NCBI GenBank assembly: GCA_951406725.2
Contig: OX597834.1
Location: 31,000,001-31,064,000 of the forward strand
Reading direction: 5' to 3'
Source: Octopus vulgaris
Taxonomy: Eukaryota
Length of the DNA stretch: 64,000 bases
Position numbers and translations under genes: made by a program
Shown: positions 10,970 to 62,661 of the stretch, piece by piece
Layout of the letters: each line of letters starts with the position of its first letter
Numbering within the stretch: the stretch's first letter is position 1
Notes under the pieces: generated by a model
Seen by the model: only the letters and a program-made list of their open reading frames with translations
Told to the model about the DNA's origin: nothing
The model's database searches: none

Positions 10970-11256
10970 TCACTTCTTGTTTGAATCTAAGACAACATCC
11001 AAGAAAGAGATAATGGTAGAGTTTGCTTCAATACTGATTATTATGTGAAAAGGTATGAATATATGCATAATGCCTTCCCTTAGTATGTTTAGAGTGTGCC
11101 TACATGCATATTTAGAAGTAGTTAACCTGTCATCTCTGTAGAGGCCGAAATCTGTTGAAGTGACCTCTAACATATATACCCCCCAAAAATCAATGTTATC
11201 AAGGGACCCCATACTTACATCAAATGAGCTGTCTCTGTTAGACTTCTTGACCAGAG
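10970..11256 (-). pseudogene. Penelope-like element reverse transcriptase relic
   Basis: LVKK..SSFDVSMGSLD..GVYML..FGLYRDD..ISIEANSTIISFLDVVLD matches PLE RT motifs FDVTMGSxDG / GLYRDDG / VNFLDVTLDL. Confidence 0.8.
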
Positions 11257-11801
11257 CTTAACTGATTTAGTCTTTGCACTCACACTGGACTTTGTGGTGG
11301 ACTTTGTGGTGAGCAAAATACTTATGAAATGTCCATGAATTCACATAACCTTATGCAGTAAAAATATTCATAAGAACTCCAGCATACGATGAGATGCTGG
11401 AAGATTTTTCATCATCAGCATCATCATTGTTTCAACATCTACTTTTCCATGGTTACATGGGTCAGACGAAATTCGCTGAGGCTGATTTTTGACAACTGTA
11501 TGCCCTTCTTGTCACTAACCCTTACCTCTTTTCAAGTAAGGTAATATTTCCCTGTGACCAGACACATTTTCATGGAAGATTGAAAAAGAACGACACTGTT
11601 TGCGTGAAAGTGACACTCATATACTACTGTCATGTGATGTCAAGCAAAGCAGTCAGTAACACACACACACACTTTCTCATACATACAAACATACATACAT
11701 ACATACATACAAACATACATACATACATACATACATACATACAAATATACATACATACATACATACATACATACATACATACATACATACATACATATAT
11801 A

Positions 11802-12178
11802 CACTACCGTCAGAAATTAATTAGCACCCTTGATTTGCTCTTCACTCAAGGTATGTGCTGTCACCTAGTGGCCATATCTCGAACTATTGCTTTGTTGCGA
11901 GTTCACTGTTGCGCAGAACGATGATGTAACTTTGTTTGCAGAGCAGTTTGAGAGTCTACAGCCTTATGATGTTGACATAGCAGTGCAACAAATTGGAGTG
12001 CGGATGCAAACAAATCTTCTTTTGTTTAATAGATATAGGTAGCGCCTCGCAAGGACCGAAATCACACCATACTAAGTTTTCTCATCGCGTAAGACGTTTT
12101 GAACAGCTCATAGGTTAATTGATTTAACTTATTTAATGTAGAAATTTGAGAAGTGCTAATTAATTTCTGACGCAAGTG
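11802..12178. mobile_element. Tc1/mariner-type MITE
   Basis: 26-bp TIRs cactaccgtcagaaattaattagcac / gtgctaattaatttctgacgcaagtg, with TA on both sides. Confidence 0.85.
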
Positions 12179-12503
12179 TATAAGCCATGCCCCTGTCCAA
12201 CCCATGCCAGCATGGAAAACTGATGTTAAATGATGATGATATATATGATGGGCTTCTTTTAGTTTCCATCTACCAAATCCACTCACAAGGCTTTGGTTGG
12301 TTTGGGGTTATAGCAGAAAACACTTGCCCAAGGTGCCATATATTGGAACTGAACCCAAAATCTGGAACCTTATGGTTGGGATGCCAAGTTCCTACTGCAC
12401 ATAGCTTTGCCTATTTTCTTAGATCTCAACAAAATTATTGCAACAATTTTTTTATCAACATCTCCAGGGGCCTCACTCATTTCCATGATACTCCATATTT
12501 CAG

Positions 12504-12629
12504 CTGAGAGCTGTCGTTGTCGTCTTACAATGCCTGATCTGATGTGTTCCCAATCTATGACATCATTGACACTGGATGCAATTGCATGCCGGGAAGAGGA
12601 AGCTGTAGTGGTGGACTATATTCTGAAAG
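12504..12629 (+). CDS. Candidate internal coding exon (126 bp, phase 1-1) of an unidentified gene: ESCRCRLTMPDLMCSQSMTSLTLDAIACREEEAVVVDYILK
   Basis: Acceptor ctccatatttcag| and strong donor AAAG|gtaagg. Length is a multiple of 3, only one frame is open, and composition is non-repetitive. Confidence 0.55.
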
Positions 12630-12899
12630 GTAAGGAGAACTACTTTGTTTTTCAGTTTATTTTACATTAAGAAAACAAAATGTATTACTACGCCGTTTAA
12701 TTTCTATATATTTATTGAAGATGTAATGTTAGTGACTCACTAACTGCTGTCTTCAGCATTGTATTATGCACTATTTTCACTGCTGAGTTTGTTCTTTAAA
12801 AAAAAGAAAAAAGGTCAACAACAAATTTCATTGAAACAATACTGACGAAACAAAGAAACTGTAAAAAATAACAACATAAATAAATAACGGACTTAGCTG

Positions 12900-12955
12900 C
12901 ACATGACTTAAAGTTTCATCAGCTTTCAGGATGAACTCAACTCATCAGATATGTG
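12900..12955 (-). ncRNA. Type I hammerhead ribozyme motif (PLE-type)
   Basis: Minus strand: catat-CTGATGA-gttgagttcatcctgaaagctgat-GAAAC-tttaa-GTC-atgtg. Helix I has 5 bp, helix II is imperfect and helix III is near-palindromic. Confidence 0.65.
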
Positions 12956-61033: not shown

Positions 61034-61215
61034 GTAAAAATATTTTAATCGTCGGATGTTTTTAATATGCTAGGCCACTGGTTTTAATTGATTAACATCA
61101 ATTTCTACCCTCATTAAATTATATATATATATATATATATATATATATATATATATATATATATATATATATATATATATATATATATATATATATATAT
61201 ACATATACATATATA

Positions 61216-61590
61216 TGTTGCAGAATGAGGGAGTGTTGCTTTTTGTGTGTGGGATTTGTTGGAGGAGCTCTGGTCAGTCATAGGAGAACTCACAGGAATC
61301 GACCCATGGTAAATCGTGATATGGCTATTGTTCACAGCAGAGCGTGTGCAACATGTGGAAAGGTATGCCTCTCAGTTGGAGGATTGAAAAGGCACGTGAA
61401 AAGAGTTCATACTGTGGCACCTGTTCTCTTCTGCCAGCCAGCACAGCTGTGCATTTATGTAATAGAATGTGCAAACCTTTCGCCAGGCTCAACAGTCACA
61501 AAAAGGCCTCACATTGCATCGCCATCGACTCACTTCAATGATTCGTTCTAGGAATGGCTTTGTCCATATACGAGAAAGCAGCTAAGAAGA
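61216..61590 (+). pseudogene. RTE-BovB-like extreme 3' end (C2H2 finger plus tail)
   Basis: CATCGKVCLSVGGLKRHVKRVH and a second degenerate finger CNRMCKPFARLNSHKKASH, with a short tail ending aagaaga. Confidence 0.6.
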
Positions 61591-61624
61591 TATATGTGTG
61601 TGTGCGTGAATATATATATATATA

Positions 61625-62023
61625 TCTTTATATATAAAAGTAAGGTTGTGTGCTGTCTGTCTCCTACGATTTAGATTCCTAACTACTCCCACATTTTGCG
61701 GTGCAGTTTAACCAAAACCGGGTATCTTATAGTCGTGATTCATATCGAGCCCTTCTGGGTATTAGTGCGCGTCTACGATGAGTCTACGATTAAAAAAAAA
61801 AATTACCATAATTTTTTTCCATTTTAATGCATTTTTTCGCTATTATATAAGGGAAGTAACTCTAAAAATGTCTACGATAAGTCAACGATTAAAAAAAAAA
61901 TTTACCATAATTTTTTTTCCACTTTTAATGAATTTTTTTGCTATTTTTTGGCTATAACTCTCTAAAAATGCTTATATAGTTATTTCCCTTACAAACCCGA
62001 GCAACGCCGGGCGATACTGCTAG
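61625..62023 (+). mobile_element. Non-autonomous Helitron
   Basis: A|TC...cccgagcaacgccggg...CTAG|T, inserted in (TA)n. Confidence 0.92.
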
Positions 62024-62066
62024 TATATATATATATAATCAAAATAAGCAACAAGAATGACTCCGG

Positions 62067-62159
62067 TAATTTGGTACGATCGTTTCGTACTACATCATTT
62101 TATTAAACGTTTTAAGTATTACAACAGATTTAAGTTGCTGAGTACTCATCAGCCAATTA
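62067..62159 (-). ncRNA. Type I hammerhead ribozyme with complete catalytic core
   Basis: Minus strand: taattgg-CTGATGA-gtact-(49 nt)-agtac-GAAAC-gatc-GTA-ccaa(a)tta. All core nucleotides and the G10.1-C11.1 pair are present, and helix III is the palindrome ACGATCGT. Confidence 0.8.
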
Positions 62160-62661
62160 TAGAGGTTTTCCATTAATACAAAAATTTTCAAATCAGGTGG
62201 CAACATTATAGAGAAGGTAGATATATAGACAAAGATGTGGATTTGAATGTTAAGAACATATGAGATAGTAGAGTCCACTGACTGACTAAAATCTGGTTGT
62301 TCTGACTATAATATATATATATTATACACATTATATTATTTTTGTAATTTACTTAATCTTTACTTTTTATTGTTATTTAATTTTAACTTTTCTATTATAT
62401 GTAATTTTCTAGATGGTGTAATTTAATTATTCATTTTGAATTGATAAAAGGTGTTTTTTTTTCTTATATTTTATATATATATTGTATTGTGTGGAATTTG
62501 ATTTAGTATTTCTTAATTGAATTCTTTTTCCTTGTAAGTTTGGATTTTATTCCCTCAAATAATAATTATATATATATATAATTATAAAGTTAATCCAAAC
62601 AAGACAGCACAAAAAACAAAACAAAAACACAACAACGCGAGGACGTGGAACAAATAATATA

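Follow-up and report, generated by a model that had tools for sequence, protein, structure and literature searches.

The closest described relatives of the sequences considered here are the Hydra-clade Penelope-like retrotransposons, such as Hydra-1_Obim of Octopus bimaculoides, through which octopus Penelope hammerheads are already in print (PMC8557442, supplements). As described in that source, these elements have a type I hammerhead placed towards their 3' end, a helix III of 3-4 bp with a loop of 0-2 nt, GUA, GUC or GUU cleavage sites, (TA)n targets and shared reverse transcriptase (RT) motifs, and loop II measures 3-10 nt in the published table. Here we analyze a 64,000-nucleotide stretch of Octopus vulgaris DNA (contig OX597834.1, positions 31,000,001 to 31,064,000; hereafter the window), which contains four good hammerhead motifs accompanied by relics, one of the four (at 62152) being intact and a member of an abundant repeat family. 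The window elements have the above features in common with the Hydra clade but differ in that three of the four good motifs possess helix II domains of 53-64 nt and in that the good motifs have no attached open reading frame (ORF). We propose that the blocks bearing type I hammerheads are probably solo 3' ends, equivalent to the 3' untranslated region (UTR) or pseudo long terminal repeat (pseudo-LTR), of several Penelope-like families, with the Hydra clade as the likely source.

Other described systems share part of this architecture. The minimal hammerheads of Penelope pseudo-LTRs (PMC4209133) follow a plan that one window motif, at 15696, also fits, whereas the window helix II, with about 20 or more pairs, goes well over their 7-8 bp. 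According to the same source, minimal hammerheads in animals mostly occur singly in the genome and probably represent truncated Penelope elements. PLE-X1 of Selaginella is likewise Penelope-like with an enlarged loop II, given as 29-34 nt in two Selaginella elements (PMC8557442, File S2), but it is an endonuclease-minus plant element that targets rDNA, and its loop is shorter than the window domains. Metazoan non-LTR retrozymes are likewise short, non-coding and AT-rich with a type I hammerhead (PMC7229834; bioRxiv 10.64898/2026.07.22.740005), but their definition requires tandem units together with circular RNA, neither of which is seen for the window elements; the preprint argues that they derive from Penelope pseudo-LTRs.

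Our tests covered the window, 78 metagenome loci of related Hydra-type elements (L001-L078) and four contig sets, and chance was gauged by 2192 local dinucleotide shuffles of the window. The bare word CUGANGA occurs 24 times against 26.3 expected. The loose pattern CUGANGA..GAAA..NUH, from which an earlier note had drawn up to seven motifs, occurs 8 times against 7.66 expected; thus, the pattern as first worded lies at chance level, and an excess emerges only when helices are required. A strict type I descriptor with pairing recovered two sites, 62152(-) and 12948(-), against 0.008 expected, with one of the 2192 shuffles reaching two, and permitting a single core mismatch added 44816(+). The combination of GAAA, a 6-nt palindrome and UH was found four times (0.31 expected; no shuffle held as many), one of these sites, at 38438, being without an upstream core. 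Because the pairing descriptors were devised after the sites were known, we built an independent score, trained on 43 hammerheads of the Hydra-type metagenome loci, which permitted spacers of 8-100 nt and was calibrated on 1758 shuffles. By this score 62152(-) reached 46.5 and 44816(+) 43.8, neither of which was equalled by any hit in the shuffles, followed by 12948(-) at 39.5 (0.001 expected per window) and 23545(+) at 34.3 (0.008 expected per window). The next-best hit was noise (0.57 expected), and the remaining three sites of the original seven, 13611, 44498 and 15696, did not rise above it. The feature is real but smaller than first listed.

These figures also bear on the possibility that every motif other than 62152 is a chance match in AT-rich, repeat-rich DNA. 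Such a view would accommodate the loose motif count and the three sites that fail the trained score, and indeed 44816, 23545 and 12948 each carry a defect. It is nevertheless highly unlikely, given that 44816 was unequalled among the 1758 shuffles, that 12948 and 23545 scored so far above expectation, and that 12948 has a paralog retaining both core halves in register.

The most complete motif lies in a solo, (TA)n-bounded element at 62039-62306 on the minus strand. Its core (62152-62146) is followed by a helix II domain of 59 nt (62145-62087) with a 5-bp base, GAAA at 62086-62083 and an 8-nt palindromic helix III at 62083-62076; the predicted cut falls after 62075 (GUA), and a 4-bp helix I pairs 62153-62156 with 62074-62071. 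The plus-strand block at 44645-44940, bounded by (TA)n on both sides, carries a near-intact hammerhead with C3U against G8. The earlier note had placed the core of this motif, which it located at 44843, at CTGATGT (44856); the true first half is 44816-44822, and it opens onto a 64-nt helix II domain (44823-44886) with an 8-bp base and a long hairpin (z -2.8), GAAA at 44887-44890, a palindromic helix III, a predicted cut after 44898 (GUA) and a helix I of 5 bp. The third motif (23528-23685, plus strand) retains intact core letters at 23545-23551 and GAAA at 23605-23608, and its 53-nt helix II domain (z -2.2) has an A·A mismatch at the base, with 2 bp in helix III and 4 bp in helix I; this hammerhead is likely decayed. 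The fourth, in an element at 12800-13075 on the minus strand (12900 in the earlier note), has a strict core at 12948-12942, GAAA at 12917-12914, a weak helix II of 24 nt, a 5-bp helix I and a GUC site, and its helix III is that of several Hydra hammerheads, letter for letter. A C/D small nucleolar RNA was considered as an identity for this element and rejected, the match to SNORD82 (E 0.35) being far under the gathering threshold.

The remaining sites are relics or of another type. An inverted, diverged paralog of the 12900 element occupies 13318-13720 on the plus strand, with decayed hammerhead halves at 13456 and 13621 separated by a 158-nt spacer, the result of comparison being a 134-nt insertion or deletion in loop II relative to its partner. 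None of 1961 random window segments scored as well as the 12948/13616 pairing, in which both core halves are in register. The motif once listed separately at 13611 dissolves into this copy, of which it represents the helix II end, the second core half and helix III. The upstream parts of the inverted pair (13200-13460 and 12950-13200) align over about 250 nt; these parts may derive from the end of a coding region that has since decayed, and comparison with the Hydra profile gave no match. At 44438-44622 (minus strand) a relic, listed as 44498, has GAAA at 44509-44506, a GUA site and a helix III whose palindrome is shared letter for letter with Hydra locus L037; there is no recognizable first core half, the putative helix II folds no better than shuffles (z -0.9), and the score is not above noise. 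The (TA)n-bounded repeat at 15595-15834 (minus strand) bears a minimal, short-helix hammerhead-like motif (15726-15700) with U4C, an extra A after A9, a 4-bp helix II, G12A and a 12-nt spacer, and so differs in type from the other sites; it has a partial second copy at 62582-62656.

Taken together, the type I core (CUGANGA and GAAA, A15.1-U16.1, NUH) is intact at 62152, 12948 and 23545, carries C3U at 44816, and is lost at 15696 (U4C, G12A), 44498 and 13456/13621. The three-helix plan with an open helix I is complete at 62152 and 44816, with helix II weak at 12948 and mismatched at its base at 23545. The very short, often palindromic helix III that the earlier note had described for most of its motifs is borne out in its Hydra form (3-4 bp, 0-2 nt loop) at 62152, 44816, 12948 and 44498, while 23545 has only 2 bp. 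Among 36 block pairs compared, one was clearly similar and 12948/13616 was borderline, a case settled by the later alignment described above; the other pairs are unrelated. The claim of mutually unrelated flanks therefore fails for the 12900/13611 pair and stands for the other pairs tested, in keeping with several distinct lineages. From cleavage site to (TA)n the distance is 37 nt at 62152, 42 nt at 44816, 68 nt at 23545 and 193 nt at 12948. Since 16% of random positions have a (TA)n run within 60 nt, the suggested (TA)n boundaries are good for 62152 and 44816 and loose for 23545 and 12948.

The reference loci place these motifs in context. A type I hammerhead lies 44-320 nt past the stop codon, with helix III on the same plan as in the window, in 41 of the 70 Hydra loci that include an ORF end; the other 29 have short tails, interrupted UTRs or motifs below the helix thresholds. 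Loci L042 and L076 carry a U3-A8 core variant. A relaxed scan, permitting spacers of up to 120 nt, found the motif in 52 of 78 loci, with spacers of 10-29 nt and none longer. Against this, the core spacers in the window are 53 nt (23545), 59 nt (62152) and 64 nt (44816), in agreement with the helix II domains of about 50-60 nt anticipated at the outset. The window domains thus lie beyond the sampled Hydra range, and enlarged loops have precedent.

It had been suggested that standard short-helix descriptors would miss such domains. Rfam covariance models did return no hammerhead match in four window blocks (E up to 10), but they likewise returned none in six of six short-helix Hydra control loci (E up to 1); the Rfam test is thus powerless here, and its misses do not stem from helix II length alone. 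Scanned across the whole window, Rfam gave only microsatellite-driven matches among the 150 of 421 listed.

Two protein remnants in the window are of Hydra type. The RT fragment noticed earlier is confirmed at 10973-11257 on the minus strand as a Hydra-clade Penelope RT relic, matching profile positions 309-406 of 715 (hidden Markov model (HMM) E 7e-14) over 95 residues with an internal gap and no attached hammerhead; it shares motifs with Hydra-clade elements, including Hydra-1_Obim, as these are given in the PMC8557442 supplement. The profile was built from 121 Hydra-like proteins, and the searches used Hydra profiles only. A profile-free HMMER search with the 95-residue relic returned 52 proteins, mostly of a 700-residue family (2988 relatives), the top two being unrelated repeat proteins. 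A word-index search with the relic gave no match, Pfam gave none for the relic or for 7 Hydra-like proteins, and no Hydra loci were found in viral contigs. Hydra-type Penelope proteins (P0047-P0171) are very common in marine data, where the 2988 relatives were counted. The second remnant, absent from the earlier list, lies at 36256-36512 on the minus strand: the last 42 codons of a Hydra-type ORF (36512-36387), matching the last 42 profile positions at 16.1 bits (the highest-scoring non-overlapping segment among 393 controls reached 5.1), are followed by a 78-nt hairpin at 36333-36256 (z -5.7; 0 of 500 shuffles). The hairpin carries hammerhead-like remnants readable in two registers, either as a long helix II with a decayed core and a lost helix III, or as a hairpin that precedes a short motif damaged by (CA)n. 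One of these readings has a core-like word locked within the hairpin, resembling an inactive alternative fold. As a link between a Hydra ORF and a hammerhead, this site is suggestive only.

The same mechanism could operate with a parent from another Penelope clade (Naiad, Neptune or Penelope/Poseidon), in which case long spacers would explain the 'HHR_half_core' entries of cephalopod Naiads. Eight Naiads have core halves 35-50 nt apart, two of them (TA)n-targeting cephalopod families, from Octopus vulgaris/sinensis and from Euprymna (PMC8557442), small palindromic forms of helix III are known in other clades (PMC4209133), and the 15696 motif follows the minimal plan of canonical elements. Conversely, when three window sites were represented by four motifs of 12-13 nt, the PMC8557442 supplement, in which line breaks may hide matches, contained none of them, and the last 600 nt or so of three cephalopod Naiad consensus sequences are unlike the window blocks by eye. 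Both protein relics are also Hydra-type, within a search confined to Hydra profiles. We regard a parent outside the Hydra clade as unlikely.

Variation in the 62152 family offers a view of one lineage beyond the window. Parts of 62039-62306 are present in 20 runs, which span 10 studies and 4 organism codes, two runs covering at least half of its words, and none of the runs listed is recorded as RNA. We aligned four contig runs to 62000-62450 at 80% likeness, a stretch that also includes the ends of two neighboring repeats, and placed 8451, 8006, 220 and 3096 contigs, respectively. Single variants are backed by up to 100 distinct contigs; the family is thus abundant, which supports the multi-copy status expected of these elements for the sole family examined. 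Thinning upstream, depth drops 100-fold or more in the stretch 62224-62288 or 62272-62319, and the loose ends found at 62024 continue into (TA)n. The family may represent accumulated truncated copies or a short element with a master copy of its own; the steep 5' drop leans towards a defined end, although it may partly reflect changes private to this copy. At 62108, 62112 and 62135 the majority letters (each carried by more than 75% of depth in every one of the three DNA-type runs) differ from the window copy, and together they turn a weak branched fold into one long hairpin, from -7.6 to -13.2 kcal/mol (-5.6 kcal/mol), a gain matched by 4 of 3000 random triples. This more stable majority fold points to an ancestral hairpin more than to ongoing selection. 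Of 12 variants located in the helix II domain, nine maintain or re-create base pairing, one sits in an unpaired position, one would be compensated if inherited together with 62143, and one disrupts a pair; those at 62089 and 62143 would jointly convert A-U to G-C, and those at 62078 and 62081 (7-10% each) would jointly preserve the palindrome, both combinations being unphased. None of the 19 variable sites listed is among the 13 core positions (P 0.055).

Further observations attach to this element. A polymerase III promoter was discarded as a candidate, the B-box-like word at 62240-62249 being lost in the family majority. A 17-nt pattern from the hammerhead had 6 viral matches, none extending into the motif. 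In run X7, which we guess to be RNA, 62107-62182 has A>G changes at 13 places, compared with 3-4 in other runs, and seven listed A>G places have frequencies of 13-46% in X7 but below 0.4% in the other runs. This gives no more than a hint of adenosine-to-inosine editing in transcripts antisense to the hammerhead.

The abundance and dimensions of this family invite comparison with non-LTR retrozymes, in which tandem units are cut, circularized and copied by a Penelope RT; the window would then hold their dispersed monomers. A size of 200-300 bp, the lack of upstream coding sequence, abundance and the sharp 5' fall in depth all suit such a short unit, monomers can make up any proportion of such a family (bioRxiv 10.64898/2026.07.22.740005), and retrozymes do exist in mussels (PMC7229834). 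Yet no tandem copy is found in six window regions examined, nor do the four contig sets contain a tandem or unit-length circular back-joint among the joints listed, a search in which contigs can drop rare forms. The copies of the 62152 family share one 3' end point within (TA)n instead of continuing into a next unit, the 5' end of the window copy does not repeat the post-cleavage tail, and the helix plan is Hydra-type, unlike the 6-bp/4-bp plan of retrozymes. A retrozyme origin is quite improbable, and the retrozyme-like system first envisaged for this locus is not upheld.

An origin as solo Penelope 3' ends would imply the following sequence of events. A Hydra protein, combining RT and a GIY-YIG nuclease, would nick (TA)n, in accordance with the insertion preference of Hydra families (PMC8557442). 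Synthesis of complementary DNA (cDNA) would start on uncut RNA, some 37-42 nt beyond the cleavage site in the 3' direction, since each good copy retains both sides of the scissile bond. Uncut RNA is also the template of a Poseidon element; the hammerhead of that element requires protein for cutting and is dispensable for insertion in vitro (PMC11167929). The cDNA would mostly stop, or its template mostly begin, 100-120 nt upstream of the core, giving copies of 200-300 bp. Hammerhead cutting at these sites is predicted from sequence: intact motifs, with a 2-bp helix III and a tetraloop, should cut weakly as monomers and better as dimers, with the 8-nt palindrome joining two copies carried on one transcript. 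Axolotl motifs of 2-bp helix III and tetraloop behave in this manner (PMC7229834). A cofold of two window copies came out lower in energy than two monomers, a figure of energy alone to which we give no weight. The long helix II is predicted to extend away from the core and would be tolerated, and it may well serve as a folding or protein-binding arm; most genomic copies would be inert relics.

Several points weigh against this account. The sole direct link between ORF and hairpin, at 36.3 kb, has a decayed core and two registers, one of them with a short helix II. Apart from 36340, 8 hammerhead blocks were searched for an upstream Hydra ORF remnant and none had one, and nucleotide comparison of the blocks with the 78 Hydra loci gave two weak short hits only; the clade assignment consequently relies on the helix III plan, (TA)n and co-occurrence. 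Copy number and variation were examined for the 62152 family only, and its summed depth over the hammerhead (4-9e5 in runs X1 and X4, with single listed contigs at 25-77) is not a copy number. Its paired variants are unphased, many variants are transitions, which leave a G·U pair that helices in general accept, and core invariance is only suggestive among the rows listed.

The surroundings of the hammerhead blocks are rich in other repeats. A second abundant, AT-rich repeat (62328-62560) lies directly upstream of the 62152 element, with depth up to 1.2e6 in X4 and no hammerhead core seen. Two copies of a repeat of about 400 bp, at 61625-62024 and 62660-63054, begin with TC and end in a hairpin and CTAG, which we take to be features of non-autonomous Helitrons; both full copies stand at (TA)n adjoining hammerhead-type repeats, and partial copies occur near 21007 and 26976. 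Frames at 6699-7169, 18124-18528, 25362-25733, 33116-33700, 40185-40681 and 48527-49209 are presumably relics of long interspersed nuclear elements and a Tc1-type transposase. Probable plus-strand gene exons with splice-like borders lie at 12468-12627 and 9243-9383; they had no family match.

The overall system is known, octopus included, and we found no report in print of long-helix-II hammerheads in cephalopods, the long helix II being a variant that our searches did not meet in print; a 2017 RNA Biology paper on dimers, Repbase/Dfam or the O. vulgaris library may already contain the families. A 2026 repeat annotation of O. vulgaris describes 31 recently active Penelope-like families and its main text does not contain the word 'ribozyme' (PMC13282606). 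For the giant squid 235 Rfam ribozyme hits are reported (PMC6962438), and such cephalopod counts are likely to be large underestimates.

It is tempting to speculate further, albeit tentatively and with some doubt, that octopus-like cephalopods harbor abundant non-autonomous elements of about 220 bp with a defined 5' end and active hammerheads, in which a helix II of 55-65 nt has grown independently in several lineages, the arm serving as a recognition site for Hydra proteins that copy in trans into (TA)n. Although most copies are likely inert, the many-copy 62152 family, with its intact core and an apparently conserved long helix II, offers natural variation with which to test the arm in folding, dimer formation, protein binding and copy length. 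If the broader proposal were true, these elements would constitute a dispersed, non-tandem class of ribozyme-bearing short interspersed nuclear elements, invisible to Rfam, and would provide a natural test of what the Penelope hammerhead does.

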